This document shows positions 1,174 through 43,666 of a DNA stretch of 64,000 nt, piece by piece. Made by a program: the position numbers and the translations under genes. How positions within the stretch are numbered: the first letter of the stretch is position 1; each line of letters begins with the position of its first letter. The notes under the pieces are model-generated. The model was not told the origin of the DNA. It searched no databases and saw only the letters and a list, made by a program, of their open reading frames with translations. This DNA comes from a virus (taxonomy: Duplodnaviria > Heunggongvirae > Uroviricota > Caudoviricetes), in the IMG/VR virus record IMGVR_UViG_3300036766_001364, positions 64,001 through 128,000 of that record; one strand, given 5' to 3'.

Positions 1174-4100
1174 ATGCCGACGGTCCTCGAACGCTTTGTC
1201 GACGCGATGATCGGTCCGCGATCGAGCCAGGTACAGAAGGCGCGGGTCGCCGACCCCTCGGATCTCGGCGGCTTCCTCGAGTCGACGATCAAACTCGGCG
1301 GACCAAACGCGTTCCACGCGACGATCGTCAAAGACTTCATGGAGAAGCAGCAATACGACCAGTCAGCGTTCGGCCAGATGATCAACATGTCGCGCAGCGC
1401 GACCGTGCTCTCGTCGAGCGGTGGGATGGTCGGGATCAATGACTACGGGGTCAAGGGACGCCGCCAATACGCCGCCGAGCGCCGTCGCCTCCTCGACCTG
1501 TACACGATCGTCTTGAACAACGGAGACATCCGCACCGCGGTCACGCATCTGCGCAACGAGATCTTCCGGCGCGGCCTCGAATGGGAGCCGGCATTCGAGT
1601 ACAAGTGCGATCTCTGCGACGAGACGTACACCGAAAAAGAGGCCAAGCGCATGAAGAAGCGGTGCGCCTGTCCAGAGTTTGAAGAGTACGCCGAGAAGCA
1701 CGAGCTCCAGGGAGACGACGCCGAGGGCTACCCGCTGCGGCGTCCCGACAAGAATGAGATCAAGAAGTTCGACAAGTTCCTCGACCGCGCAAATTACTTC
1801 GACCAGTCGTTTGAATCGATCCTCCGGATGGGAGAAGACGACATTAATGTTGTTGACGATGCGTTCATCTACCTGCGCAAGCACTACTGGACTGACGAAG
1901 AGATCATGTCGCGGGCCGAGGAAGACCCGTTCGACGACGCGTCCGAGCCGCGGTCCGAGGTCCTGCAGATCTTCAGGCTCGACCCCACGCTCATTGAATT
2001 CGACATGGATTCGCGCGGGATCCCCGGGCAGGCGCACCACGTGTGCGTCGTGCACCGCGACGAGCTGCTCACCGTCCCCTACGGCGAGGGCTGGGACGCG
2101 AAGTGGCGCGGGGTATGTCCAGACTGTGGGCTGCAGACGTACCCAGTCTACTACAAATACAGCGAACAGCAGTCGGGCACGATGGGCGCGAGCCGCCCGA
2201 TCGTGCTCTACCTCACGCGCGACGAGGTCATTCACTGGTCGCGCTACACCCCGTGCTACGACTTCAAGACCGAGGTCATGACCAGGAACGGTTGGAAGCG
2301 GATCGTGGACGTGGACGTGAATGCCGACGAAGTCGCGACGCGATCTGAAGACGGCTTCCTCGAGTGGCAGCGTCCGCTCGACAAGGTGGTGCGGCCATAC
2401 ACCGGTCCGATGTGGGTCGCGAAGACGCAGCGCGTCGACCTCGTGGTCACGCCGCACCACAGACTCTGGGTGCGAGGCGCCTACGCTGAGGAACCGGGGT
2501 ACACGCCCGTGCACGCCCACGACGAGTTCCCGTCGCATCACGTGGCCACGAAGCACCGCGAACTGGGCGAGCGCAATTCTGGATATGAGGCGCCGGTCCG
2601 CGAGAAGCTGACGACGGCCTTTGGGCTGGTCGAAGCGTACAGGGTAGACAACACCCAACGCATCTACATGTCGAACACCGCCAGATGGTCTGGGACCGAC
2701 ATAGACGAGTTCGAGATCCCAGGATACGCCGGTCCGTCGCCGCGCGCTAAGTACTTCGGGGACAGAGCGATCGCTTCGAAGACCGTCAAGATGTCAGATT
2801 GGCTCGAGTTCCTCGGGTATTTCTTGACGGGGGGTTCGTACGCGAAGTCGTCCAGCCCGTCGCGCTTGGTTGAGATCACGCAGAGCCGGACGGCTAACCC
2901 AGAGACGCGCGCGGCCATCATGAGCTGCGTCGAACGCCTCGGGCTGCGCTATTCGAGTCCCGGCGACAAGATCCATGTCTGGCACCCCGGATTGAGGCGG
3001 TATTTAGAGCAGTTCGGGCGCTCGAGGGATCGGTTCATCCCCGACGACGTCAAGCAGTTGCCAGTGCGGCGGCTCGCCGTGCTCTTCGACGCCATCATGC
3101 GCGGAGACGGACACTTCGATGAGCAGGGAAGACCAACCCTGTTCAAGTCTATTTCTCCGCGATTCCGTGACGACGTCGCCGAGATAGCGATCAAGCTTGG
3201 GTATCAAGTGGCGTTTCTTGGTGATGCTGCACTGCGGTTCGGGGTCAATCGAGAAGCTGACCTCTGCCTGAACTCCGGCACCTACGGCATGTCTCAGGAA
3301 GATCAGTCGGTGGGAGCGGTGTTCGGGCTGGAGGTCCCGAACCACGTGATGATGGTCCGCAGAAACGGAAAGACGGTGTGGTCTGGCAACACCGAGACCT
3401 ATGGGTTCAGTCCTGTCTTGAGCATCTACGAGAAGGCGCTCACGCTGATCGGGATGGACCGCTACCTGTACGACTATTTCTACGAGCGCAAGATCCCACA
3501 GGGCGCAGTGGCCGTGACGACGGACGACATCGAATCGTTCAACTCGACGAAGCAGGACGTCGAGGCGCACATGCAGCAGGACCCGCATTATATCCCGTGG
3601 GTGGCTATCGCTTCGAAGACTGGCCAGGGTCGCATGGAGTTCGTGCGGTTCGCGTACTCGCTCGACGAGCTCGACTACCTCCCCGTCAGGGACGAGATCA
3701 GGGAGCGGATCTCCGGGCTCTACGGTGTGTCGCAGCTCTGGATGTCGTCAACCGATGGCATAGGCGGACTGAATTCGGAGTCTCAGCAGCTCACGGTCAT
3801 GAGTCGCGTCGTCGAGGGCGCACAGCGCAGCTATCACGTGGACGTGTTCCCGAAGCTCGAGACCGCGCTGCACGTGCACGATTGGCACCTCAGGATCAAG
3901 ACCCCCGAGGAGTCTAACGAACTGATCACGCTGCAGATCAGGCAGACCAAGGCGGCGATCGCGCAGTCCATGGCGGGAATGGGGTTCGGCGTCGAATACG
4001 ACTCAGAGGAGGACGAGTTCATCTTCAGCGGGCGCGTGCTGTCGATGGAGGAGCAGCAGAAGCAACAGATGGCGCAGGCGAGCCCGTTCGATCCCGGCGG

Positions 4101-4320
4101 GGGCGGCCAGCCGCCGAACGCGCCAGGCGCCCAACCGTCGGCCCAGGCGGCTCCCATGGCAGCGGCCAACGGGAACGCCGGACGCGGGTATGGCGCGATG
4201 GGCGGAGGGTTCGGCGCGCAGCAGAACGCGCGCGGGACGGGGATGGTACCCACGGCCGGACGCCCGGCGATGCGCACCGCCATGCAGCAGGTCAGAGATC
4301 GTGGCCAGCGACCCACATGA
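1174..4320 (+). CDS. phage portal protein containing an intein
   Basis: Portal-type motifs DEVIHW...YGFSP (reconstituted after removing the intein) and SGLYGVSQLW; low-complexity C-tail; position upstream of a MuF-like gene. Confidence 0.85.
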   Translation: MPTVLERFVDAMIGPRSSQVQKARVADPSDLGGFLESTIKLGGPNAFHATIVKDFMEKQQYDQSAFGQMINMSRSATVLSSSGGMVGINDYGVKGRRQYAAERRRLLDLYTIVLNNGDIRTAVTHLRNEIFRRGLEWEPAFEYKCDLCDETYTEKEAKRMKKRCACPEFEEYAEKHELQGDDAEGYPLRRPDKNEIKKFDKFLDRANYFDQSFESILRMGEDDINVVDDAFIYLRKHYWTDEEIMSRAEEDPFDDASEPRSEVLQIFRLDPTLIEFDMDSRGIPGQAHHVCVVHRDELLTVPYGEGWDAKWRGVCPDCGLQTYPVYYKYSEQQSGTMGASRPIVLYLTRDEVIHWSRYTPCYDFKTEVMTRNGWKRIVDVDVNADEVATRSEDGFLEWQRPLDKVVRPYTGPMWVAKTQRVDLVVTPHHRLWVRGAYAEEPGYTPVHAHDEFPSHHVATKHRELGERNSGYEAPVREKLTTAFGLVEAYRVDNTQRIYMSNTARWSGTDIDEFEIPGYAGPSPRAKYFGDRAIASKTVKMSDWLEFLGYFLTGGSYAKSSSPSRLVEITQSRTANPETRAAIMSCVERLGLRYSSPGDKIHVWHPGLRRYLEQFGRSRDRFIPDDVKQLPVRRLAVLFDAIMRGDGHFDEQGRPTLFKSISPRFRDDVAEIAIKLGYQVAFLGDAALRFGVNREADLCLNSGTYGMSQEDQSVGAVFGLEVPNHVMMVRRNGKTVWSGNTETYGFSPVLSIYEKALTLIGMDRYLYDYFYERKIPQGAVAVTTDDIESFNSTKQDVEAHMQQDPHYIPWVAIASKTGQGRMEFVRFAYSLDELDYLPVRDEIRERISGLYGVSQLWMSSTDGIGGLNSESQQLTVMSRVVEGAQRSYHVDVFPKLETALHVHDWHLRIKTPEESNELITLQIRQTKAAIAQSMAGMGFGVEYDSEEDEFIFSGRVLSMEEQQKQQMAQASPFDPGGGGQPPNAPGAQPSAQAAPMAAANGNAGRGYGAMGGGFGAQQNARGTGMVPTAGRPAMRTAMQQVRDRGQRPT
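2254..3390 (+). mobile_element. intein (379 aa, LAGLIDADG-type) in portal
   Basis: Starts CYDFKTEVMTRNGWK; block B VTPHHRLW; LFDAIMRGDG endonuclease motif; ends VWSGN followed by Thr+1. Confidence 0.9.
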
Positions 4321-15421: not shown

Positions 15422-18400
15422 GTGTCTCCTTCAGCCCTGACTCAAGACCAGATCCGCATCTTTCAGGACAGGTACGCGACGCGCGACTCGGCGGGTGAGC
15501 TCACCGAGAAGTGGCCCGAAGAGTCGTGGAAGCGGGTCGCGCTGGGCGTGGCCGAGGCCGAGAGATACTACGCCGCGAGGAAGATCGGCGTCGACATCGA
15601 CGGCGCCGTGAGTGAGAACGCAGAGCGCTTCTACGAGCTGATGCGCGACTTCCGCTACGTGCCGGGCGGGCGCATCATCGCGGCGATGGGCACGGACGTG
15701 CAGGTCACCGCCCAGAACTGCTACGTCATCCCGAGCCCCGAGGACAGCCGGGGAGGGATCCTCCACAGCCTCTACGAGTGGGTCGAGATCCAGTCGCGCG
15801 GCGGGGGAGTCGGGGTTAACCTGTCGAGCCTCAGGCCGTCTGGCGCGCCCGTCAGGGGGGTCAACGGGACGTCGTCTGGTCCCGTGTCGTGGGCGCGCCT
15901 GTTCGCCGACGCGTCGCAGGTCATCATCCAGGGCGGGTCGCGCCGCGGGGCCGCGATGATCATGATGAACGACGACCACCCCGACGTCAAAGAGTTCATC
16001 CACGCGAAGGAGACTCCGGGAGTCCTTGAGGGCTGCAACATGAGCGTCTGCATCAGCGACGCGTTCATGCGGGCCGTGACCGACGACGGGCCGTGGGAGC
16101 TCAAGTGGGGCGGGAAGGTCTACGAGACGCTCAGGGCCCGCGACATGTGGCAGGACGTCGTGACCGCAGCGTGGCGCAGCGCCGAACCCGGCATCTACTT
16201 CATGGAGCGCGCGAACCAGGAAGCGAACTCGGGCTACTTCGAGACACTGATCTCCACCAACCCGTGCTTCACGGGCGACACCCTCATCGCGGTGGCCGAC
16301 GGGCGCGACGCGGTCTCGATCAAGCAGCTGGCCGAGGAGGGCGCGGACGTCCCGGTCTACTGCTGCGACGCCGACGGCGTGGTCCAGATCAGGACGGGCC
16401 GCCACCCGCGCGTGACGCGCGAGCGGGCGGAAGTCTGGAGGCTCACGCTCGACGACGGGAGCGCGATCCGCACGACGCCCGATCACAAGTACCTGCTCAG
16501 GGACGGGACCAAGGTCCCGATGCGCGACCTCAGGCCCGGGGACCGGCTGATGCCGTTCTCTAAGGCCGTGCTCAAGCGCAGGACCAACTCGTATATGACT
16601 GTCAATCGGAATGATGGACGCGCGCCAGTCATGGAACATCGCATGGTCGTCGAATCTAATCTTGGACGCCCACTGCGTGGTCATCCGGAAGAGATCATCC
16701 ATCACGCTGATTTCAATGGACTGAACAATGTGCTTTCAAATCTGCTTGTGATGAGCGATCGAGAGCACAAAGCACTTCATTATCAGACAGCGATAGGTCT
16801 TCAGGCTTGGTGGGCAGAGCAGGACTCTGAGGCAAAGACGCGACTCAACGGCATGAGCGGAAAGCGACATCGGCCAGAGTCGCTTGCTAAGATCGGAGCG
16901 AAGACGCGGGCCTACATGGCGGATCCTGAGGTCAAAGAGAGACAGCGTGCCGGAGTGCGCGAATGGTATGAAAACCACGGCACGGACTTTCTCAAGGGCG
17001 AACGCATCGAGCGAGAGAAGCGCGTCTGCGCTAATGGACATTGTAGCGTCCGGTTCGAGGCGCTTCCGAAGTCAACGCGGCGACACTGTTCGACCTATTG
17101 CAGCTTGGTCGTGCTCAATGAGGCGCAGCGTGGAGTGCCGCTCACGCCTGAGCATCGCGCGAAGGTCGGCGTTTCGTCTAAAGTGTGGGCGGAAACGCCT
17201 GAAGGACGCGCCTCGAAGGCTAAGGCCGGGCGCGAGACGTTCAGAAAGTACGCGCTGATGAACGGGAAGATTGCGTTCGAGCAAACAGGCGCTATCGACA
17301 TGAATCGATGGGATGATTATCGCGAGCTGGCGAAGGGCAATGGTTGTACTAAATTCGTCAGCAGAGCGACGATCGACAGGTTGTTTAGTACACGTGAGCA
17401 ATTCGTCGAACTGGCCGAGGCCTGGAATCATCGCGTAGTCTCGATCGAGCCCGATGGGTTCCAGGACGTATATAACCTGACCGTTGATGAGTTCCATACA
17501 GTGGCCGTCATTACAGTGCCTGACGGGGTCTCAAAGCGTTCTGGAGCGCGGGTGAAGACAGGTATCGTGACTGCCCAGTGCGGCGAACAGCCGCTCGGCC
17601 CCTATGGTGCCTGCCTGCTCGGCGCGTTCAACCTGGTCGCGTTCGTCAAGCAGTCAGACCACGGCGGCCGGGGCGAAGCGGGAGACGCCGCCGCGAACGC
17701 GTCGAACGCGAAATACTTCGACCTCGCCGAGTTCAAGAGGCTCGTCGCCGTCGCGGTCCGCTTCAACGACAACATCGTCGACATCAGCAGCTACCCGCTC
17801 CCCGAGTGCAGGGACTCTCAGCAGCGCATCCGCCGGATGGGCATCGGCGTCATGGGCCTCGCCGACGCGCTCATCGAGCTCGGCATGCGGTACGGCAGCG
17901 GCGAGGCGATCGAGTTCACCGGCAACGTGTTCAGGGAGATGCGCGACGCCGCGTACATGGCTTCCGCGCGCCTCGCAGAAGAGCGCGGGCCGTTCCCCCT
18001 GTTCGACAGCGAGAAGTTCCTGGACCGGCCGTTCGCCAGGCGGCTGCCCGAAGACGTGCGCCAAGAGATCGCTCGGTACGGCGTCAGGAACTGTTACCTC
18101 CTGACCCAGGCGCCCACGGGCACGACGGCGATGGTCGCGAACGTCAACAGCGGCATCGAACCGTTCTTCGACTTCCGCTATCGGCGCGTCGACCGGACCG
18201 GATCGTCGTGGATGTTGAGCCCGTACGCGCACCGCGTCTACGGCGACGATGGCCAGGGAGAGAGGCTCAAGAGCGTCGATCCGGTGTACGTCACGGCCAA
18301 CGAGGTCACGCCCGCAGAGCACGTGCTCATGCAGGCCGCAGCGCAGAAGTTCGTTGACGCCAGCATCAGCAAGACGGCGAACATGCCAGAGTCGGCGACA

Positions 18401-19030
18401 GTCGGCGACGTCGGAGAGATCTACGCGATGGCGTGGGACGTCGGGCTCAAGAGCCTGAGCGTGTACCGCGACAACAGCCGCTCTGAGCAGGTCCTCTACC
18501 ACGATAAGGAAGACGAGGCGGCCGCCCAGGCGCCGCCGCCGATCGCCGCGCGGCACAAGCTCCCCAACGATCGCGCGGCGCTGACGCACAAGTTCGAGAT
18601 CGGAGACTACGAGGGGTACATCACGGTCGGGATGTACGAAGACGGGACACCCGGAGAGGTGTTCGTCAAGGTCAGCAAGCAGGGGTCGACGGTCAACGGG
18701 CTCGTGGACGTGATCGCGATGCTGATGTCGTTCTGCATGCAGTACGGCGTTCCCTACGAGACGCTCAGGGACAAGCTCTCCGGATCGCTGTTCGAGCCGG
18801 CCGGACGCACGTCGAACAAGGACGTGCCGTTCGCGACGAGCCTTCCCGACTACGTGGTGCGCTTCTTAGACAGGAAGTTCTGGTCGAGGGAAGCGGCCGA
18901 ACCGGCGTTCGTAGAACGCGCGATCGCGGGGTCTCCGACGGGAGAGGCCTGTCCCAAGTGTGGCGGGACGCTGTGGAAGGCAGAGGGCTGTGCGTCGTGC
19001 CGCAACTGCACATACGAGCGGTGCAGCTGA
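15422..19030 (+). CDS. nrdJ: class II (B12-dependent) ribonucleotide reductase with intein
   Basis: PGGRI, GGGVG, SRRGAAM, NP|CGEQPL, RRMGIGVMG, APTGT, DASISKT, C-terminal TSCPD-like domain and Zn ribbon. Confidence 0.92.
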   Translation: MSPSALTQDQIRIFQDRYATRDSAGELTEKWPEESWKRVALGVAEAERYYAARKIGVDIDGAVSENAERFYELMRDFRYVPGGRIIAAMGTDVQVTAQNCYVIPSPEDSRGGILHSLYEWVEIQSRGGGVGVNLSSLRPSGAPVRGVNGTSSGPVSWARLFADASQVIIQGGSRRGAAMIMMNDDHPDVKEFIHAKETPGVLEGCNMSVCISDAFMRAVTDDGPWELKWGGKVYETLRARDMWQDVVTAAWRSAEPGIYFMERANQEANSGYFETLISTNPCFTGDTLIAVADGRDAVSIKQLAEEGADVPVYCCDADGVVQIRTGRHPRVTRERAEVWRLTLDDGSAIRTTPDHKYLLRDGTKVPMRDLRPGDRLMPFSKAVLKRRTNSYMTVNRNDGRAPVMEHRMVVESNLGRPLRGHPEEIIHHADFNGLNNVLSNLLVMSDREHKALHYQTAIGLQAWWAEQDSEAKTRLNGMSGKRHRPESLAKIGAKTRAYMADPEVKERQRAGVREWYENHGTDFLKGERIEREKRVCANGHCSVRFEALPKSTRRHCSTYCSLVVLNEAQRGVPLTPEHRAKVGVSSKVWAETPEGRASKAKAGRETFRKYALMNGKIAFEQTGAIDMNRWDDYRELAKGNGCTKFVSRATIDRLFSTREQFVELAEAWNHRVVSIEPDGFQDVYNLTVDEFHTVAVITVPDGVSKRSGARVKTGIVTAQCGEQPLGPYGACLLGAFNLVAFVKQSDHGGRGEAGDAAANASNAKYFDLAEFKRLVAVAVRFNDNIVDISSYPLPECRDSQQRIRRMGIGVMGLADALIELGMRYGSGEAIEFTGNVFREMRDAAYMASARLAEERGPFPLFDSEKFLDRPFARRLPEDVRQEIARYGVRNCYLLTQAPTGTTAMVANVNSGIEPFFDFRYRRVDRTGSSWMLSPYAHRVYGDDGQGERLKSVDPVYVTANEVTPAEHVLMQAAAQKFVDASISKTANMPESATVGDVGEIYAMAWDVGLKSLSVYRDNSRSEQVLYHDKEDEAAAQAPPPIAARHKLPNDRAALTHKFEIGDYEGYITVGMYEDGTPGEVFVKVSKQGSTVNGLVDVIAMLMSFCMQYGVPYETLRDKLSGSLFEPAGRTSNKDVPFATSLPDYVVRFLDRKFWSREAAEPAFVERAIAGSPTGEACPKCGGTLWKAEGCASCRNCTYERCS
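16265..17578 (+). mobile_element. intein (438 aa) with HNH endonuclease, C-terminal Gln
   Basis: Starts CFTGDTLIAV; block B TTPDHKYL; HNH EHRMV...IIHHADFNGLNNVLSNL; block F VYNLTVDEFH; ends TAQ before catalytic Cys (CGEQ). Confidence 0.9.
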
Positions 19031-31909: not shown

Positions 31910-32185
31910 ATGCGCAGCCGCGATCCGCGGACGCGAGCGTTCGGTCGAGCCCTCGCTCGCGGGCGCGTCACGCCCGGGTCGCAGCTCGACCTGGCGATCA
32001 GCATCTCGGCCGCCGTGATGAAGCAGGCCGGCGGCAGTGGCGGTGGTGGCGACGGGGGCGGCGGCGCCGGTCCCGCGACGGGGAGCCCTATGATCGGGTC
32101 CGACGTCTACACGCCGACGCCGTCGTCTGGGCGCAGGCGGGTTTCACGGCTGTCGAGGGCGAACTATGATCTCGCACAGGAATGA
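31910..32185 (+). CDS. small Gly-rich hypothetical protein
   Basis: ATG 31910, stop overlaps protease start; VMKQ motif. Confidence 0.5.
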   Translation: MRSRDPRTRAFGRALARGRVTPGSQLDLAISISAAVMKQAGGSGGGGDGGGGAGPATGSPMIGSDVYTPTPSSGRRRVSRLSRANYDLAQE

Positions 32186-34275
32186 CAGTCTGGGCTAGCG
32201 TCATCGACAACACCCTCCCGCAGTACGAACTGCGGAGATACGGTGCCGTCTCGGTCATCTCTAAGGCGGATCCCGGCCCGCTCAAGGCCAGGCGCGAGGT
32301 CATCGTGGCGGGCTACGCGTCGCCGCAGGTGATCGATCGCGACAAGCACGTGATCACCAAGGAGGCCCTCGCGAAGGACCTCCCGCGCTTCATGGCGCAC
32401 CCAAAGTATCGAAACGTCAATCTCTTACACTGTCTTGAGGCCGGCACGCAGATACAGGTGCCAGAAGGCGTGGGATCGTTCAAGCCGATCGAGCAGATCG
32501 AGGTCGGCGATCGCGTGTACACCCACAAGGGCAGAATCATGCCGGTCACCGAGGTGTTCAAGCACAAGGGACCGGACGAGCTGATCGAGCTGACGCTCGA
32601 AAACGGCGTGACCGTGCGACTGACTGATGAGCACCAGATCCTCGTCGTGGATCGCGGTTGGATCAGAGCTGGAGATCTCGCTCAGGGCGATATCCTGCAT
32701 CATCTCGTCGATCATGAGCCGCCGGAGATGCTCGTCACTGGAGTGCGAGTCGTGTCGGCTACGCGGGTAGCCTTCGAGGGTTGGGTCTATAATGTCGAGG
32801 TCGACGGGGACCACTCATACGCCGGCGACGGAATCGTATTCCACAACTCGAACGTCCAAGTCGGCGAGGTCATCCCGTCGTGGACAGACTCCGAGACGGG
32901 CAAGCGCTACGAGACGAAAGTGGACGACGTCGGTCTCTTCGTCGTCGTCAAGATCCGCACCGATCCCTATCGCCCGCCCATCGTCGACAAGGTCATCGAG
33001 GACATCGAATCGGGAAAGATCGCCTCGTTCTCGATCTCGGCGGACGCGCCGTTCGAGTCGCGGAGGCACGAGTGCGCGAACGGGACCTGTTTTTGGGTAA
33101 TTCACGACATCGTCACGTACGAAATAACTTTGGCCGCGATGCCGGGGACCGTCGTGACGACCGCGAAGGGCGATCTTCTGATCGAAGATGTCCAGGTCGG
33201 AGACCAGGTCTTCACGCACCGTCGACGCCGACGGATGGTCAACGCCGCTGGCATGATCTGGTACACGGGCGACGTCATTCGCATCACGACCGACGATGGT
33301 GCAATAGAAGTGACGCCAGAGCACCAGATTAGAATCATCCGTAAGGGCCAGACTCGCGCTCATTGGATCGACCCTACGGACATCAATGAGGGTGATACTG
33401 TCGTCAAGGGCGATAATTTTCGAGGGGGCATCAGGACTGTCGATGGTCGCAAGCGACAGATCGCTGGCGTGACTTCGCCCGAATTCAGGAAGAAGCGCGC
33501 CGAGATCATGCGTCAGGCGTGGGCAGACCCGAGCTATCGGGCAGCGATGGTAGTGAGGCTCGCCGAGACGAGGAGCAAGCACACGCGCGAGAGCTATGTG
33601 AAGCTCTCTGAATCGCTCAAGGCATCGTGGGACGACGAGCGCAGACGAGCGCTCAGTGAAGAGATGCGAGATCGTTGGCTCGACATCGAATATAAAGAGC
33701 GGGTCATCGATTCGATGAGAGAGACGGCGTCTACGCCCGAGAGACGCGAGGCGCATAGCATGGCTTCGAAGGCCGTCATGGCCGATGAGACCGTGCGGGC
33801 TAGAATCGGTGACGCGTCAAAACAGCGTTGGCAGGACGATGAGTATCGTCGGCGCGTAAAGAGAGCTCAACTCGACTCGTGGGACGATCGCGACGATAGG
33901 CGCGAGGGCGCGAGGCAGACGTTGAGCCGGCTCAAGCGGGATCCCGCGTTCAACGAGGCGCGGTTCAAGTCGTTGAGACTGTCGCCAAATAATCTGGAAA
34001 AATCGCTGTGGGCGAGGATCGGCGAATTCGGCTACCTCTACACTGGCGATGGCAAGCTCATCACGAAGAGCGGCCTGTGTCCGGACTTCGAGCATCGCGG
34101 CAAGCCCAAAGTCGTCGAAGTCTTTGGTGACTACTGGCACGCCGGGCAGGATCCTCTCGACAGGATTCAGCGGCTCAAGGGCGACGGCTTCGACAGCATT
34201 ATCGTTTGGGAGCGAGAGGTGAATGAGGACATCGACGGGGTCGTCAGGCGGATAGAGGAGTTCACTAATGCCTAA
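32182..34275 (+). CDS. prohead (capsid maturation) protease N-part with mini-intein and IntN of a split intein
   Basis: IVAGYAS...DRDKHVI, NLLH, GLFVVVKI, IESGKIASFSISA, YEITL (HK97-type protease motifs). Confidence 0.85.
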   Translation: MTVWASVIDNTLPQYELRRYGAVSVISKADPGPLKARREVIVAGYASPQVIDRDKHVITKEALAKDLPRFMAHPKYRNVNLLHCLEAGTQIQVPEGVGSFKPIEQIEVGDRVYTHKGRIMPVTEVFKHKGPDELIELTLENGVTVRLTDEHQILVVDRGWIRAGDLAQGDILHHLVDHEPPEMLVTGVRVVSATRVAFEGWVYNVEVDGDHSYAGDGIVFHNSNVQVGEVIPSWTDSETGKRYETKVDDVGLFVVVKIRTDPYRPPIVDKVIEDIESGKIASFSISADAPFESRRHECANGTCFWVIHDIVTYEITLAAMPGTVVTTAKGDLLIEDVQVGDQVFTHRRRRRMVNAAGMIWYTGDVIRITTDDGAIEVTPEHQIRIIRKGQTRAHWIDPTDINEGDTVVKGDNFRGGIRTVDGRKRQIAGVTSPEFRKKRAEIMRQAWADPSYRAAMVVRLAETRSKHTRESYVKLSESLKASWDDERRRALSEEMRDRWLDIEYKERVIDSMRETASTPERREAHSMASKAVMADETVRARIGDASKQRWQDDEYRRRVKRAQLDSWDDRDDRREGARQTLSRLKRDPAFNEARFKSLRLSPNNLEKSLWARIGEFGYLYTGDGKLITKSGLCPDFEHRGKPKVVEVFGDYWHAGQDPLDRIQRLKGDGFDSIIVWEREVNEDIDGVVRRIEEFTNA
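32431..32847 (+). mobile_element. mini-intein (139 aa) inserted right after the putative catalytic His
   Basis: CLEAGTQI..., LTDEHQI, VYNVEVDGDHSYAGDGIVFHN, Ser+1. Confidence 0.92.
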
Positions 34276-34375
34276 GGTGCTGTCTGTCGAGCGCGTCCCA
34301 TACGAGGGTTGGCTGTATTCGCTCGATGTGGATGAGGATCGATCATTCGTCGCTAACGGGCTGGTCGTCCATAAC
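33133..34375 (+). mobile_element. split intein, Ala1 N-part with endonuclease (33133-34275) plus 36-aa IntC (34268-34375)
   Basis: AAMPGTVVTTAKG block A, VTPEHQI block B, NUMOD3-like and Vsr/DUF559-like nuclease, stop; separate MPKVLSVERVPYEGWLYSLDVDEDRSFVANGLVVHN then Cys+1. Confidence 0.8.
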
Positions 34376-35287
34376 TGCAGCACGCCAGTCAATCAGGACG
34401 CTAACTTTGCCGTCCTGTCGAAGGCGTTCGACGAGGTCGGTGAATACGCAAAGTCGGCGTTCTGTCGGGGCGGCGAATGTCCCGTCAACCCACTGCAGGC
34501 GGCGGCGATACTGAAGGCCGAGGGGCGCACCTTCCGGTGGTCGCGCCCGTCCGTCACGGGGATGCTCGGCGCGGGCGACCTGCTCGACGCGGCCGCGAGC
34601 GGTGACTGGGATGAAGACCTCCATCCGCGCGACGAGGGCGGACAGTTCTCCGAGACAGAGGGAAGCGGCGCGGGAACGCGGGGACCGGGGGGCGGCGGCG
34701 GACCCGTGCGGTACAAGCGCTTCACGGTGAGGGTGATCGGGGAATCCGACGAGAGGGCGTTCGATGGGAGTCAGCGGTCTGTCGAGCGAACGCTCGACAA
34801 GGCCCAGACGGGTGAGCTCGGCCAGGCGATCCTGATGGCGTACCTCGGCCACGCTCACGGCGTGGAGTCCGTCCCGTTCAACGAGCGCGACCCGCACTCG
34901 CCCATGGATTTCAGGGTGGGCGACGTTGTCGTCGAGGCCAAGGCTGGGCTCGTCAGCAACAGTCGCGACGCGCAGAGATGGCGCGTCACGCTCGGTGAGC
35001 CGGGACCGGCCGAGAAGCGGATGATCGCAGCGATGAACCCGAGCGAACGCGCGGCGTGGAACGCGCGAAAGGGAGAAGACGCGATCGCGCGCAAGCGACG
35101 GGCCCTCGACGACGCGTCGGAAGCGGTGGGCCGATCGCTCAGCATGAGGACCATGACGGCGATCATCGATCCCGACCGCGAGATCGCCGACATCTTTGAG
35201 TTCGATGATGTGCACCCGCGGATCGGGTGGAACAGCGAAGCGGCGCGGAAGGGATACGTGGGGAGCGTTCGATATGGCGCAGCGTAG
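34268..35287 (+). CDS. IntC plus protease C-extein plus PD-(D/E)xK nuclease-like cargo domain
   Basis: GAGGAG RBS 7 nt before ATG; HN|CSTPVNQDANF; HPRDEGGQF; PMDFRVGDVVVEAKAG. Confidence 0.8.
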   Translation: MPKVLSVERVPYEGWLYSLDVDEDRSFVANGLVVHNCSTPVNQDANFAVLSKAFDEVGEYAKSAFCRGGECPVNPLQAAAILKAEGRTFRWSRPSVTGMLGAGDLLDAAASGDWDEDLHPRDEGGQFSETEGSGAGTRGPGGGGGPVRYKRFTVRVIGESDERAFDGSQRSVERTLDKAQTGELGQAILMAYLGHAHGVESVPFNERDPHSPMDFRVGDVVVEAKAGLVSNSRDAQRWRVTLGEPGPAEKRMIAAMNPSERAAWNARKGEDAIARKRRALDDASEAVGRSLSMRTMTAIIDPDREIADIFEFDDVHPRIGWNSEAARKGYVGSVRYGAA

Positions 35288-38200
35288 TGTCTTCAGTAGG
35301 ATCGCCGCGCTGACGGCGGCGGAGAACCAGGAGAGCGCCGATCGCTGGAAGCGAGCGCTCGTCGGATCGTTCAACGCGGGCGAAGAGAAAGCAGAAAAGA
35401 ATGGCGGTGGATCGAGCGGGACTACGGGGCTGCCCGTCGTCGCGAAGCCAGAGCGCGGACTGGTCAGCGCCGAGAGCGAATCAGAGCCGAAGTCTCCCGC
35501 GAGGAGGCTCGTACCAGACCCGAGCATCCCCGACGTCGCGAAGGCCGAAGCGGGCGGACCGATCGCGGCCGGGCTGGCCGTCGTGGCGGCAGACACGGGC
35601 CGCGTCCTGATGCTGCAGAGGGCTCTTGCCGACGGCAGAGACGACCCCGCTGCCGGGACGTGGGAGTTTCCTGGCGGCCACGTCGACGCCGGAGAGAGGC
35701 CGCTAAACGCGGCCAAGCGCGAGTGGGCAGAAGAAGTGGGCGTCGCGCTTCCAGACGGCGTTGTGGTCTCACGCTGGAGATCGCCCGATGGGGTCTATGC
35801 GGGGTTCGTCTGGAGGGTGGAGAGCGAGGGGCTCGTGCCGTTCGGCGACCGCGACCAGGTGACGAACCCAGACGACCCGGACGGTGACCGGCTCGAAGCG
35901 ATCGCCTGGTGGGAGCCCGACGACGTGCCCGACAACCCGGCCCTTCGCGACGAGCTCAAGGGCCGTATCGGAGATGCTCTCGGACCCGTCATGAAGAAAG
36001 CCGACGAGGCCATCGCGAACGCCGTGAGGGATCGCCTCAGGGAGGACCCGCGCTACTATTCGGGGGCGCTCGCCGATGGGGGCGGACTGAGTTCGGCGGA
36101 CCCCGAGAAGCTCGAGAACGTGCTGATGATCACGACCAGCGTCCCGCCCGAGGGCGCGCAGAGCGGCGGTGGGCGCAAGGACCGCACGGTCAGCAACGCG
36201 ACGGCGGCGACTACGGGGCTCGCGACCACGGGGCTCGCGACTCTCTCGCTCTCGACGTACGCGATCGGGGACAACGGTGCGGGGGCGACCGTGAAAGACG
36301 TCGAGCCGCGACCCGCCGATGGGGTGGCGCCGCACGCTCCCGAATCGGACCTCAAAGACGAGGTGCAGTACCTCAACAAGGGCGCAGACCCGATGAACTG
36401 GACGCACGGGGTCGTGGACTTCACGACGGGCGAGGACGACAAGAAGAAGCCGGTCACGTCTGAGCCGCTGAAGCGCCCGAGGCTCGCGTACGCAGACTTC
36501 AACCCGGGCATCCGCAAGGACATCGTCGAGTCGCTCGAGCGCGCCGTCGTGTCGCTCGCGGTCGCCGATCCGTCGCCGTTCATCGCGCTCGCGGCGCTCG
36601 CGTCTCCGGAGCTCGGTCTCTCGTGGGACCCGGCGAAGAGCGACTACGCGGTCCTCGACCCGCGCGTCGACGACATGATCGGAGCGACGTTCGGGAAGCT
36701 CGCAAAGATGGCCCGTCGGATGGGCGACGGAGCGCTCGTCAACGATTTGTCGCTCCTGAGGTCGCGCGTGCAGCGCGCCCTCCCGATGGGGCCAATGGAG
36801 ACCGTCGCCTCGATGCATCAGGTGGCCAAGGCGGCCCGTCACCTCGGGGTGCCGTGTGAATCACCGTCAGTGGTCTCAAAATCGAAGGACACGGCGGATT
36901 CGATCGGGCGCGCGGCCCAGGCCGTGTTGAGGGTCAGGGACAGCCTGGAGGACAGCGTCTTCGACAAGGGCAAGCGCCGAGAGCTCGACCCGACCATCAT
37001 GACGGCCGTCGATGCGCTGTACGAGGACGCCGTCTCGCTCATGGACGGGCTCGAGCTCAGCAGGTTCGTGGACCACGGCGACGACGAGCCGGAACACGAG
37101 GTCATCGAGGCCGCGGACGTCGAGAACACGGTCAGCGACGTCGAGAAGACCGATATCTTGCTCGACGCCGTGAACAGCAAGACGAATAAGTCACATTCGC
37201 AGACGAAGTGCATGAGCTGCGGCATGGCGCCGACGAAGCTCGTCAAGTGGGCCGAGGGCATGGCGCTGGCGTGGTTCTGCGACCGCGACTTCGACGACTG
37301 GAAGAAGAAGAACGGCGGCGAGATCGTCTGGGTCCACGACGTCAGAGACGGCGACGTGGGGCCGATGATCAAGAAGGGCAGCGTGTCGGTCAGCGACACG
37401 TTCGAGGACCCGACCGAAGACAAGGGCGGTCCCGAGAACCTGCCAAAAAAGTGGGAGAAGCGCCACCTTGAGGCCGAGGTGGACAAGACCGAGCGCCCGA
37501 TAGACAGGATCGGCGTTGCGATCCCCTCTGAACCGGAGCTCGAGCAGATGAACGACTCAGGACACCCCCTCCCGCGCAACGTCGTGACGGGAGACGCGCC
37601 CCCGCAGCACACGGGGACGATGATCGCGTGGTACCCGACGACGGGACAGTCGCGACAGATCGCCGAGGAGGGCGGGGAGAGCGCCGACGAGCTGCACGTG
37701 ACGATCGCGTACCTCGGCGAGACGTCTGACCACGACGAGCGAGCCGTCGAAGCGATCAGGCGTGTCCTGCGCGAAGAGACCCTCAAGCAGCCCCCGATGG
37801 ACGGGTCTCTCGGTGGCGTCGGACGCTTCAACCCGAGCGAGGGGGGCGACGGCAAGTCGCCTGTGATCGCCCTCGTGGACGTGCCCGGGCTCTCTGAGTT
37901 CAGGACGCGGATCGTGCACGCGCTCGAGCGCGAGGGCGTCGAGTTCCCGCGCGACCACGGGTTCACGCCGCACATGACGATCCGATACGACGAGCCCGGC
38001 ATGGACGACCTCGCGGCGCGCGGGATCCCGCAGATCGAGACGACTCCGATCTCCGTGGACAAGGTCTGGCTCGTGCGCGACGGGAAGCGCGAGGAGTTCA
38101 CCCTCGACTCCGGCGTCGGGCAGGTGTCCGGGATGGTCCCTTCGCACGTGAAGGCCGCCGACGACGACGCGCGGAACTTTGGCAGGTCGTTCGGCCGCCT

Positions 38201-38288
38201 GTGGAGCCGTTCGTTCCTCGATCGCCGCTACCGGCTCGCCGTCGTCAAGGACGCCGACGGCGACCGCGAGATACTGGAGCTCGACTGA
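35274..38288 (+). CDS. multidomain protein, NUDIX hydrolase plus 2H phosphoesterase, putative head-packaged polyprotein
   Basis: Nudix box GGHVDAGERPLNAAKREWAEEVG; LREDPRYYS; HVT and HMT 2H motifs; many xxK-A/S/G/T motifs. Confidence 0.85.
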   Translation: MAQRSVFSRIAALTAAENQESADRWKRALVGSFNAGEEKAEKNGGGSSGTTGLPVVAKPERGLVSAESESEPKSPARRLVPDPSIPDVAKAEAGGPIAAGLAVVAADTGRVLMLQRALADGRDDPAAGTWEFPGGHVDAGERPLNAAKREWAEEVGVALPDGVVVSRWRSPDGVYAGFVWRVESEGLVPFGDRDQVTNPDDPDGDRLEAIAWWEPDDVPDNPALRDELKGRIGDALGPVMKKADEAIANAVRDRLREDPRYYSGALADGGGLSSADPEKLENVLMITTSVPPEGAQSGGGRKDRTVSNATAATTGLATTGLATLSLSTYAIGDNGAGATVKDVEPRPADGVAPHAPESDLKDEVQYLNKGADPMNWTHGVVDFTTGEDDKKKPVTSEPLKRPRLAYADFNPGIRKDIVESLERAVVSLAVADPSPFIALAALASPELGLSWDPAKSDYAVLDPRVDDMIGATFGKLAKMARRMGDGALVNDLSLLRSRVQRALPMGPMETVASMHQVAKAARHLGVPCESPSVVSKSKDTADSIGRAAQAVLRVRDSLEDSVFDKGKRRELDPTIMTAVDALYEDAVSLMDGLELSRFVDHGDDEPEHEVIEAADVENTVSDVEKTDILLDAVNSKTNKSHSQTKCMSCGMAPTKLVKWAEGMALAWFCDRDFDDWKKKNGGEIVWVHDVRDGDVGPMIKKGSVSVSDTFEDPTEDKGGPENLPKKWEKRHLEAEVDKTERPIDRIGVAIPSEPELEQMNDSGHPLPRNVVTGDAPPQHTGTMIAWYPTTGQSRQIAEEGGESADELHVTIAYLGETSDHDERAVEAIRRVLREETLKQPPMDGSLGGVGRFNPSEGGDGKSPVIALVDVPGLSEFRTRIVHALEREGVEFPRDHGFTPHMTIRYDEPGMDDLAARGIPQIETTPISVDKVWLVRDGKREEFTLDSGVGQVSGMVPSHVKAADDDARNFGRSFGRLWSRSFLDRRYRLAVVKDADGDREILELD

Positions 38289-42940: not shown

Positions 42941-43666
42941 ATGGCAGTCATCTACGCGCTCATCCAGCCGAAGACCGAGGAGATTAGGTACATCGGCAAG
43001 ACAGAACATGACCAATGGAAGCGATACGGACAGCACATCGCTGGTGCCACGGCCGAGAAGGCAAGATCGCGCCGCCTGACGGCGTGGATCAAGTCTGTCC
43101 GTCCCGACCTTCCCGGTCTCATCGTCCTCGAGACCGATCCCGATGGCCTGAACGAAGCGGAGAAGCGATGGATCGCTTGGGCGCGTGCTAACGGGTATCG
43201 CCTCGTCAACATGACAGACGGCGGCGACGGCCAGTCGAGGAGCTACGTCCCGTCAGCGGAAGCGCGCGCCAAAGTATCGGCTTCGCTCAAGGGCCGCGTG
43301 AAGACCGACCTCGAGAGGCAGCACATCTCCGAGGCGCTCAAAGGTCATCCGGTCTCTGATGAGACCAAAGCCAAGATAGCCGCTGGACACAAAGGCAAAC
43401 CTCTGTCTGACGAACACAAACAGGCGATCGGCCGCGGCGTCACCGGTGAGAAAAACGGGTTCTACGGGAAGATGCACACTGAAGAAGTCAAGGCTAGGAT
43501 AAGTCGCCTCGGCTGGCATCATTCAGATGAGACCAAATCTCAGCTTTCTGTCACCAATAGGCAATACCGGCATTCGCCCGAGGCCAGGGAGAAGATGCGC
43601 CAAGCCGCCCTCGCGCGAGAAGCCGCCAAGAAGGCCCTGACCCAGGTTTCTGCGACCGACACGTAG
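42941..43666 (+). CDS. GIY-YIG homing endonuclease with NUMOD3 repeats
   Basis: VIYAL...RYIGKT...R..QH, E..WI, N.TDGGDG; HxxExKxKIS repeats, NGFYGKMH. Confidence 0.88.
   Translation: MAVIYALIQPKTEEIRYIGKTEHDQWKRYGQHIAGATAEKARSRRLTAWIKSVRPDLPGLIVLETDPDGLNEAEKRWIAWARANGYRLVNMTDGGDGQSRSYVPSAEARAKVSASLKGRVKTDLERQHISEALKGHPVSDETKAKIAAGHKGKPLSDEHKQAIGRGVTGEKNGFYGKMHTEEVKARISRLGWHHSDETKSQLSVTNRQYRHSPEAREKMRQAALAREAAKKALTQVSATDT

Follow-up and report, generated by a model that had tools for sequence, protein, structure and literature searches.

A split intein that begins with alanine interrupts the prohead protease gene of a tailed phage and may splice by direct attack of Cys+1

Can an intein that starts with alanine and is divided between two genes still restore the protein it interrupts? 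The question is raised by a stretch of 64,000 nucleotides (the window; positions 64,001 to 128,000 of IMG/VR record IMGVR_UViG_3300036766_001364) from a 172 kb tailed phage. A sequence-only reading had placed such an intein in the prohead protease gene, and the open reading frames, motifs and coordinates that it gave are all present in the sequence as stated. Two reading frames carry the protease and its insertions:

32182-34275, plus strand: N-ORF of 697 aa, comprising the N-part of the protease, intein 1, IntN and a nuclease
32182..32430, plus strand: prohead protease N-extein part 1 (aa 1-83), ending in NVNLLH, the presumed catalytic-His region
32431..32847, plus strand: intein 1, a contiguous class-1 mini-intein of 139 aa (Cys1...FHN, followed by Ser+1)
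32848..33132, plus strand: protease extein part 2, 95 aa (N-ORF aa 223-317), FSISAD...YEITL
34268-35287, plus strand: C-ORF, comprising IntC, Cys+1 and the remaining protease
34376..34560, plus strand: C-extein, with Cys+1 at 34376-34378, then STPVNQDA and the conserved protease-domain end CSTPVNQDANFAVLSKAFDE...

The identification of the host gene as an HK97-type (Pfam S78) prohead protease is supported through its intein-free homologues. The window's own protease pieces give no match to Pfam PF04586 Peptidase_S78, as expected because the domain is cut in three. Three intein-free homologues with 62-79% identity to the window's extein segments pass the curated cut-off of 21 bits (P0009 with 31.3, P0025 with 26.1 and P0012 with 26.5 bits), and P0056, more distant at about 40% identity to the window extein, scores 49.5 bits. 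In intein-free homologues this match spans the insertion site of the split intein. More than 40 of them read YE[IV]T[LVI]/C[ESQ]x[PG]VNQDA there, the slash marking the insertion point; because the motif is uninterrupted in these proteins, both junctions can be set exactly to the residue, and joining the exteins restores a motif of the protease family, as had been proposed. The counterpart of N-extein part 1 reads NANIVH/SN in the homologues that pass Peptidase_S78. Intein 1 (Pfam Intein_splicing, E 1e-14, and also Hint_2) is missing from P0003 and P0004, which both read H/SN at its site. Extein part 2 shares 65-81% identity with the exteins of four further loci (L001, L002, L005 and L006), and the C-extein 58% with the C-ORF of L005 over aa 1-100. 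The gene of this capsid-maturation protease is interrupted at YEITL/C by a naturally split intein.

The break between the two intein halves is marked by the following elements at the end of the first gene:

34255..34260, plus strand: Shine-Dalgarno sequence GAGGAG for the IntC gene, within the nuclease coding sequence and 7 nt before the ATG at 34268
34268..34275, plus strand: 8-nt overlap between the start of the IntC gene and the end of the IntN-nuclease ORF (A ATG CCT AA)
34273-34275, plus strand: stop codon TAA of the IntN-nuclease ORF

The ATG at 34268 lies in the +1 frame relative to the IntN-nuclease ORF, and a one-base indel near 34268-34275 would join both frames. The intein could then be contiguous in truth, the break being an assembly indel or being bridged by programmed ribosomal frameshifting. 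We give this explanation hardly any credence, since the same split layout occurs in seven other assemblies with GC contents of 34-68%, six of them at the DNA level (L001, L002, L003, L005, L006 and L007) and P0065 by gene calls only, which brings the split members to eight. Seven assemblies from different samples share the boundary, each with a start codon and a Shine-Dalgarno sequence; in all seven DNA-level loci an SD-like motif stands 6-8 nt upstream of the IntC start. The ORFs overlap by 8 nt in six of these loci, where the IntC gene is in the +1 frame, but by 13 nt in L002, where it is in the +2 frame. The junction contains no slippery heptamer, and identical N- and C-proteins have been recorded from two contigs. 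The two HINT halves, N- and C-terminal, therefore lie in separate ORFs, each joined to a portion of the protease, and the recurrent boundary makes the split intein genuine rather than a product of chance or error. With its own SD and an ATG that overlaps the preceding stop, the IntC gene is translationally coupled to the IntN-nuclease gene.

A tblastn search of phage GenBank records found no relative of the split intein, only generic HINT matches to intein 1, and a search of viral contigs with an IntN-nuclease profile gave a single weak HINT match and nothing else. The IntC profile detected 80 loci in viral contigs, all of them inteins in other host proteins and none in a protease; because these share the block G motif ANG.VVHN, it is not specific to the split clade. 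Word searches with IntC led to nothing beyond the window's own protein and the C-ORF of L005.

Where, then, does the split intein come from? Our tree unites the split members in one clade (support 100/99), whose sister group consists of ten Cys1 cis-inteins inserted at the identical point of the protease. Eight of these relatives carry the Vsr-like nuclease (P0069, P0070, P0072, P0073, P0027, P0103, P0175 and P0085), and two are mini forms (P0008 and the second intein of L007). Both groups share the insertion point E[IV]T[LIVFY]/C..GVN, the order of domains and the nuclease family, and they are colinear to the residue, the cis forms reading EEFSNNSWSKI... where the split forms read EEFTNA, the stop and then MPKV... 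They differ in that the cis-inteins are single ORFs with Cys1, F:4 Asn (10 of 10) and B:11 Pro (9 of 10), whereas the split clade has two ORFs, Ala or Gly at position 1, F:4 S/D/G and B:11 Q/K/R. Judged by these sequences, the split intein has as its ancestor a contiguous Cys1 class-1 intein that already carried this nuclease and occupied this protease site. This placement overturns the kinship with KlbA inteins that had been suggested earlier.

A single branch of the tree saw the origin of both Ala1 and the split, which therefore count as one event and not as a repeated correlation. Independent origins were considered since the first residues of L007 look nearer to the cis forms, and were ruled out by the single clade in the tree. 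Horizontal transfer was likewise examined as an explanation for the GC spread of the carriers; because the identity of the intein rises and falls with that of the extein, the spread calls for no more than largely vertical descent or homing between relatives. One ancient lineage has retained the split arrangement ever since.

The residues on which splicing would depend lie in the two HINT halves:

33133..33432, plus strand: IntN HINT half of about 100 aa, beginning AAMPGTVV with Ala1 at 33133-33135, without Cys
33313-33324, plus strand: block B TPEH, with Thr at 33313-33315 and His at 33322-33324
34268..34375, plus strand: IntC, 36 aa, with block F WLYSLDV and F:4 Ser at 34319-34321
34370-34375, plus strand: terminal His-Asn of IntC block G (VVHN), His at 34370-34372 and Asn at 34373-34375

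The IntN half matches Hint_2, IntC matches positions 122-155 of Pfam Intein_splicing (E 9e-4), and in the alignment to the Cys1 cis-inteins A1 stands opposite C1. Position 1 is Ala in seven of the eight split members, among them the window as had been read, and Gly in L001. Neither half contains a Cys in the window and none is conserved across the clade, which leaves the obligate block F nucleophile of class 3 inteins (Cys at F:4 / C2:4) without a counterpart. The P-E-H of block B is invariant in eight members and preceded by Thr (Ser in one); the terminal His-Asn and Cys+1 are invariant as well, and within IntC 16 of 36 positions are invariant among six members. This constancy of block B, His-Asn and Cys+1 persists while HINT-N identity within the clade ranges from 38 to 60% and extein identity falls to 36%. 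F:4 varies across seven members (S/S/D/D/S/G/G; Ser in the window, L002 and L005). The WCT triplet of class 3 (B:12 Trp, F:4 Cys, G:5 Thr) is absent from the split clade, in accordance with the initial reading: the window has Ile, Ser and Val at these positions, B:12 is Ile or Val in the clade with Trp in L006, G:5 is Val, and no member has Cys at F:4. Without a conserved Cys and the triplet, the intein is not of class 3.

Class 2 inteins are defined by the lack of an N-terminal nucleophile and of the WCT triplet and by the use of T7 and H10 of block B (PMC2807308). The split clade has no Ser, Thr or Cys at position 1 and no WCT triplet, and the residue set of class 2 is complete with B:7 Thr (Ser in one), B:10 His, the terminal Asn and Cys+1. 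The KlbA inteins, such as Mja KlbA (PDB 2JMZ/2JNQ; Southworth 2000 as related in PMC2807308), are alike in their Ala1, their Cys+1 and the lack of WCT, and also in block B Thr/His and the terminal His-Asn, the residues that a direct attack by Cys+1 would call for. They are, however, unbroken mini-inteins of archaea with Asp at F:4, whereas the protease clade is divided between two genes, belongs to phages, carries a nuclease and varies at F:4. This Asp (Asp147) assists the activation of Cys+1 in Mja KlbA (PMC2807308), but just two of seven members of the protease clade have Asp at F:4, and the window has Ser. The F:4 Asp is a trait of KlbA that lies outside the formal definition of class 2. 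The profile match of the window intein to 2jmz (E 3e-4) is a generic HINT match, and because the tree derives the protease clade from Cys1 inteins at its own site, the likeness to KlbA is convergent at best.

Because position 1 is Ala or Gly and no internal Cys is conserved, we infer a direct attack by Cys+1, and we lean towards trans-splicing by such a class-2-like route. The first gene encodes a single polypeptide of N-extein, IntN, helical repeats and nuclease, and the second encodes the 36-aa IntC, Cys+1 and the remaining protease. The two intein halves would associate through the HINT fold, and Cys+1 would attack the scissile Leu-Ala bond directly, activated by the Thr and His of block B. 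As the terminal Asn cyclises, IntN-nuclease and IntC would be set free, and the protease would be made whole by an S-to-N shift. Held together again without a covalent bond, the two freed intein parts would serve as the homing endonuclease that spreads the element. That the intein gates capsid maturation, as had also been proposed, is speculation. Structure prediction of the IntN-IntC complex (110 aa and 56 aa) lends weak support to the association: at least 70% of the contacts recur between runs with a partner pLDDT of at least 56, and the score of 0.43 (best of three controls 0.00) passes a mark that 58 of 80 solved complexes cleared, as did 2 of 110 mismatched pairs, but scores of 0.60 or less past the mark were given to only 7 of the 80 solved complexes and to both passing mismatches. 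Since split inteins have been solved, the pass may also reflect likeness to known structures. Against the direct-attack reading, it may be observed that the split clade has class-1 ancestors and that F:4 is variable, with Ser in the window.

In ordinary class-1 inteins the exchange of Cys1 for Ala abolishes splicing and only C-terminal cleavage remains. The split clade might accordingly be a remnant that lost Cys1 and no longer ligates, in which IntN and IntC serve only as a tight heterodimerisation module for a two-chain protease complex, whether or not the Asn still frees the C-extein. Such an outcome would fit the derivation from class-1 Cys1 inteins, in which the exchange normally blocks the first step, and the lack of conservation at F:4 (S/D/G), a position important at both junctions in several inteins (PMC2807308). 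Aeh1 NrdA (PMC3045599) provides an example of a fragmented phage enzyme that assembles without splicing. We consider this explanation the main rival, though less likely than splicing. Although extein identity falls to 36%, no member departs from the block B His, the Thr/Ser in front of it or the terminal His-Asn, and pure docking needs none of them. The HINT halves are conserved on a par with those of the Cys1 clade, which looks competent to splice (HINT-N 46 versus 45%, HINT-C 62 versus 54%). Moreover, Asn cyclisation that freed the C-extein would undo the tether that this model itself proposes. The conservation of Cys+1 is uninformative on splicing because this residue is invariant in the intein-free proteases too.

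The split intein could also splice through another internal nucleophile, in a class-3-like manner, with F:4 Ser (window, L002 and L005) or another Ser/Thr taking the part of the block F Cys. A precedent for atypical class 3 inteins that are split and have Ala1 is AceL NrdHF (Hoffmann et al. 2020, PMC7891396; PDB 6ZGQ), a natural split class 3 intein whose initial Ala shows the earlier statement, Cys or Ser at the start of described split inteins, to be wrong. Like the protease intein, it is naturally split at the endonuclease site, stems from a phage-like metagenomic contig and has atypical motif residues. However, AceL NrdHF has an obligatory block F Cys (MCT triplet) and its class 3 route has been demonstrated, whereas Ser at F:4 is confined to three of seven members of the protease clade, the other four having Asp or Gly. 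AceL NrdHF also lacks the penultimate His that the protease clade keeps, its endonuclease is a separate GIY-YIG gene, and its sequence likeness to the window intein is weak (E 0.15). In the alignment the split clade has no newly acquired and fixed Ser, Thr or Cys when compared with the Cys1 clade, B:12 Ile/Val and G:5 Val leave no WCT triplet, and Cys+1 is atypical of class 3 (PMC2807308). A splicing route through an internal nucleophile is thus very improbable.

Behind the IntN half, the first gene continues with a repeat region and the nuclease:

33433..33942, plus strand: helical repeat region, presumably DNA-binding, between HINT-N and the nuclease core
33943..34272, plus strand: Vsr-like / EDxHD (I-Bth0305I-type) homing-endonuclease core, in frame with IntN

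The nuclease is in frame with IntN and no stop separates the two in any of the eight split members, which confirms the fusion of the endonuclease to IntN in a single ORF. Its description as Vsr/DUF559-like holds as well, with matches to Pfam DUF559 (E 0.024) and, by profile, to Vsr 1cw0 (E 0.0024) and 3r3p. A Foldseek search with the AF2 model of the nuclease (pLDDT 87.8) found I-Bth0305I (3r3p; prob 1.00, TMt 0.63-0.68), followed by Vsr (1vsr and 1cw0, prob 0.99). I-Bth0305I, of the EDxHD group (Taylor et al. 2011, PMC3239194; PDB 3R3P), thus is the best structural match and has a Vsr-like catalytic motif, but it is intron-encoded whereas the window nuclease is part of an intein half. The window carries PDF ... 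E..GDYWH ... WE.E; D, E..GDYWH and WE.E are invariant in 60 homologues, a number that includes the window copy, where all nine residues invariant in this set are kept by definition. The repeats between HINT-N and nuclease had been called NUMOD3-like, a label that found no backing, as no Pfam NUMOD match was obtained at E<=10. The AF2 model of this region consists of helices only, a repeated W.D..YR motif can be discerned by eye, and weak matches exist to the PHROG HEG families phrog_22215 and phrog_655. In the alignment the region is enlarged in the window by about 100 residues compared with the other members.

The fractured genes of Dassa et al. 2009 (PMC2677866; gp41-1, NrdJ-1, IMPDH-1) are similarly phage genes split at the canonical endonuclease insertion point, with a Vsr-like nuclease and an IntC of about 36 aa. 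In both cases the IntC gene begins within the 3' end of the nuclease coding sequence, the overlap being 6-69 bp there and 8-13 nt here. In the fractured genes, though, the nuclease is a free-standing gene placed between those for IntN and IntC; in the protease no stop separates IntN from the nuclease, so that there are two genes and not three. Furthermore, gp41-1 has Cys1 and Ser+1 (PMC11766414) in contrast to the Ala/Gly1 of the protease intein, and the prohead protease is not among the fractured-gene hosts (PMC2677866). The two-gene layout with the nuclease still on IntN represents an undescribed intermediate between nuclease-bearing cis-inteins and three-gene fractured genes.

An intein laboratory stated in 2020 that split class 2 inteins were as yet unreported (PMC7891396), and we found no report of one in the literature up to 2026. 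Among split inteins, the one described here may be the first to splice although it contributes no nucleophile itself. The wider proposal is evenly balanced in our judgement: the clade would be the first natural split intein family to trans-splice without a nucleophile of its own, Cys+1 attacking directly, by a class-2-type route that evolved from a class-1 ancestor independently of archaeal KlbA on the branch where the split arose, and that has persisted from then on in a gene essential to phage morphogenesis, in hosts whose GC spans 34-68%. If this is true, the only thiol would be that of the extein Cys+1 and no hydrolysis-prone N-terminal thioester would form, which would constitute a new mechanistic type of split intein and could give a cleaner tool for protein ligation. 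The split clade and its contiguous Cys1 sister provide a natural before-and-after pair for the loss of residue 1, with the changes of F:4 from Asn to S/D/G and of B:11 from Pro to Q/K/R as candidate permissive substitutions. For the phage, it would mean that two protein-splicing reactions, one in trans, are needed for an essential capsid protease.

The split intein studied here lies in the window with the following features:

15422-19030: ribonucleotide reductase large subunit, containing an intein with HNH endonuclease (Pfam Intein_splicing and HNH_3; PHROG HNH families)
32182-34275: ORF of 697 aa, beginning with protease extein (aa 1-83, ending NVNLLH)
32431-32847: intein 1, a complete, contiguous 139-aa class-1 mini-intein (CLEAG...IVFHN, then Ser+1)
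aa 223-317 of ORF 32182-34275: second extein stretch, ending TYEITL
from 33133: HINT N-half, opening AAMPGTVVTTAKGD..., with block B VTPEHQIRII
later in ORF 32182-34275: nuclease core PDF...VEVFGDYWH...VWERE, preceded by a long helical region
34255-34260: GAGGAG, 7 nt upstream of the ATG at 34268
34268: ATG of a 339-aa ORF in the +1 frame, overlapping the upstream stop by 8 nt and starting MPKVLSVERVPYEGWLYSLDVDEDRSFVANGLVVHN, then CSTPVNQDANF
34273-34275: stop of ORF 32182-34275

Reading the window ORFs bore out every coordinate and residue that the sequence-only reading had assigned to this locus. Among 5.8 billion proteins searched, 64 relatives were found. In more than 40 of them the site is free of any insert and the sequence is YE[IV]T[LVI]-C[ESQ]x[PG]VNQDA[KN]F, which places the insert precisely between Leu317 and Cys+1. 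Relatives that lack the intein exceed the curated cut-off of Pfam Peptidase_S78 (21 bits) with scores of 31.3 (P0009), 26.1 (P0025), 26.5 (P0012) and 49.5 (P0056), and the match spans the insertion site; the window's own protease pieces are too short to score and give no match to this family. Judged by these profile matches, the host protein is probably an S78 prohead protease. Intein 1 is inserted directly after the conserved NVNLLH histidine in the window, L005 and L007 and is absent from the loci L001, L002, L003 and L006. With both inteins in one protein, the small protease domain would need two splicing events. In L005 and many relatives, the C-terminal part of the protease, NUDIX and a 2H (LigT-like) phosphoesterase are encoded together in a single long ORF. 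The window's C-terminal ORF (to 35287) has about 240 extra residues after aa ~100 (34560-35287) that terminate it and contain an HPRDEGGQF motif and a PD-(D/E)xK-like D...EAK domain, and the NUDIX/2H part restarts as a separate overlapping ORF (35196-38288). The same polyprotein gene thus seems to have been fractured a second time, here without an intein.

The two-gene layout recurs in seven other assemblies with GC contents of 34 to 68%, six of them read from DNA (L001, L002, L003, L005, L006, L007) and one from gene calls only (P0065), and each of the window's two proteins is on record from two contigs. At every locus an SD-like motif lies 6-8 nt upstream of the IntC start. In six loci this start overlaps the upstream stop by 8 nt and is in relative frame +1; L002 has a 13-nt overlap and relative frame +2. 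It is very improbable that an artefact or recoding accounts for the ORF break: given this recurrence with differing overlap and frame, a sequencing error common to the loci is ruled out, and conserved signalling for a frameshift is disfavoured. Other arrangements were also observed. L007 (4595-5521; ENA ERZ1292627 contig, GC 34%) carries two inteins in tandem at one site: the split Ala1 IntC, which terminates in VVHN, runs straight into a complete Cys1 mini-intein (CLLPETKI...GVVHN), and CNEGVNQGA comes only after that, so that Cys1 of the mini-intein sits at position +1 relative to the split intein with no extein between them. On three IMG/VR contigs (L009, L051, L084), ANG.VVHN intein C-halves begin 0-21 codons from an upstream stop, which makes them candidates for additional split inteins within other hosts' proteins or other host genes.

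An exhaustive profile search found contiguous inteins with the same protease site and domain order (P0069, P0070, P0072, P0073, P0027, P0103, P0175, P0085), and mini forms occur there in P0008 and in L007, where the mini form is the second intein; all of them start with Cys. Cis and split forms align colinearly to the residue, with cis ...EEFSNNSWSKIISIEKIPYQG opposite split ...EEFTNA(stop) / MPKVLSVERVPYEG. In a maximum-likelihood tree with ten cis inteins all eight split inteins group on a single branch (support 100/99), which points to a single origin of the clade. Four changes fall together on this branch: position 1 goes from Cys to Ala (Gly in L001), F:4 from Asn in all ten cis inteins to S/S/D/D/S/G/G, B:11 from Pro in nine of ten to Q/K/R, and the frame is broken at the boundary of nuclease and HINT-C. 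Identity declines in parallel in inteins and exteins, with exteins down to 36% and IntC still at 53-78%, so the clade is as old as a deep divergence of its host proteases.

The HINT halves in the window contain no Cys, and the clade has no conserved one. The earlier statement that a class-3 WCT triad is missing agrees with the alignment: F:4 is Cys in no member, B:12 is Ile in the window and Ile/Val in the clade (Trp in L006), and G:5 is Val. Class 3, whose nucleophile is thus lacking, is excluded on sequence, and splicing via another internal nucleophile appears decidedly improbable. In block B, P-E-H is invariant in all eight members, preceded by Thr (Ser in one), and the terminal H-N and Cys+1 do not vary among the six members aligned. 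Conservation of the HINT halves in the split clade is not lower than in the Cys1 clade, at 46 vs 45% for HINT-N and 62 vs 54% for HINT-C. By residue pattern, the split clade fits the class 2 definition. Three points weigh against this assignment: the clade does not conserve the F:4 Asp of KlbA type, class-1 inteins are normally unable to splice once Cys1 is replaced by Ala, and conservation of Cys+1 is uninformative because intein-free proteases retain it too. A module that docks or cleaves but does not ligate is the less likely alternative, albeit a serious one, and we lean slightly towards class-2-like trans-splicing. The original observation stood, its interpretation only in part.

Complex prediction with IntN (110 aa, 8-row alignment) and IntC (56 aa, 6 rows) gave a score of 0.43 (best of three controls 0.00), with at least 70% contact agreement between runs and a partner pLDDT of at least 56. 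Of 80 solved complexes 58 attained the mark, and of 110 mismatched pairs 2 did; at scores of 0.60 or below, only 7 of the 80 attained it, as did both passing mismatches. The prediction lends weak support to an association of the halves, and the pass may reflect likeness to solved split-intein structures.

The 281-aa region after HINT-N, modeled with a 60-row alignment (mean pLDDT 87.8), begins with a run of helices and continues into an alpha/beta core. Best Foldseek matches of the core were the I-Bth0305I catalytic domain (3r3p; probability 1.00, target-normalised TM 0.63-0.68, identity 23-25%) and then E. coli Vsr. Profile searches agree (1cw0, E 0.0024; 3r3p, E 0.066; Pfam DUF559, E 0.024), in line with the proposed Vsr/DUF559-like nuclease; the additional label "NUMOD3-like" found no support from Pfam. 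Nine residues are invariant over the 60 aligned homologues; as the window copy is one of these 60, it has all nine by definition. More than 5,000 proteins match at E<=1e-10, and most of the 150 matches listed are 110-400 aa long. In all eight split members the nuclease is in frame with IntN.

The window (GC 64.5%) spans bases 64001-128000 of a 171,975-bp virus record with an estimated completeness of 98%. Near the protease it encodes a Ro60/TROVE protein, a portal protein and a weak major head protein match. The portal match is confined to aa 741-993 of a 1048-aa ORF (1174-4320), which may carry an insert or fused domain; aa 359-432 weakly and unexpectedly match a thymidylate-synthase PHROG. 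The phage has several mobile nuclease elements, among them a free-standing homing-endonuclease gene at 42941-43666 (phrog_314, E 1e-20; phrog_655). Outside the window, a weak block G match (G000:C1:56347-56409, E 0.003) within a 741-aa open frame may represent a further intein of the same phage.

AceL NrdHF starts with Ala and is presented by Hoffmann et al. (2020, PMC7891396) as the first class 3 intein that is naturally split; according to the paper, there were no earlier reports of split inteins of class 2 or 3. The earlier premise that Cys or Ser opens split inteins is thus out of date. We found no split class 2 intein in the literature up to 2026 and no description of an S78 prohead protease that carries an intein. 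Dassa et al. (PMC2677866) described the Vsr-like nuclease family as free-standing genes inside fractured genes, whereas here the nuclease is fused in frame to IntN. This split intein or fractured gene unites three unusual features: a nucleophile-free intein, a nuclease kept on IntN and a new host protein.
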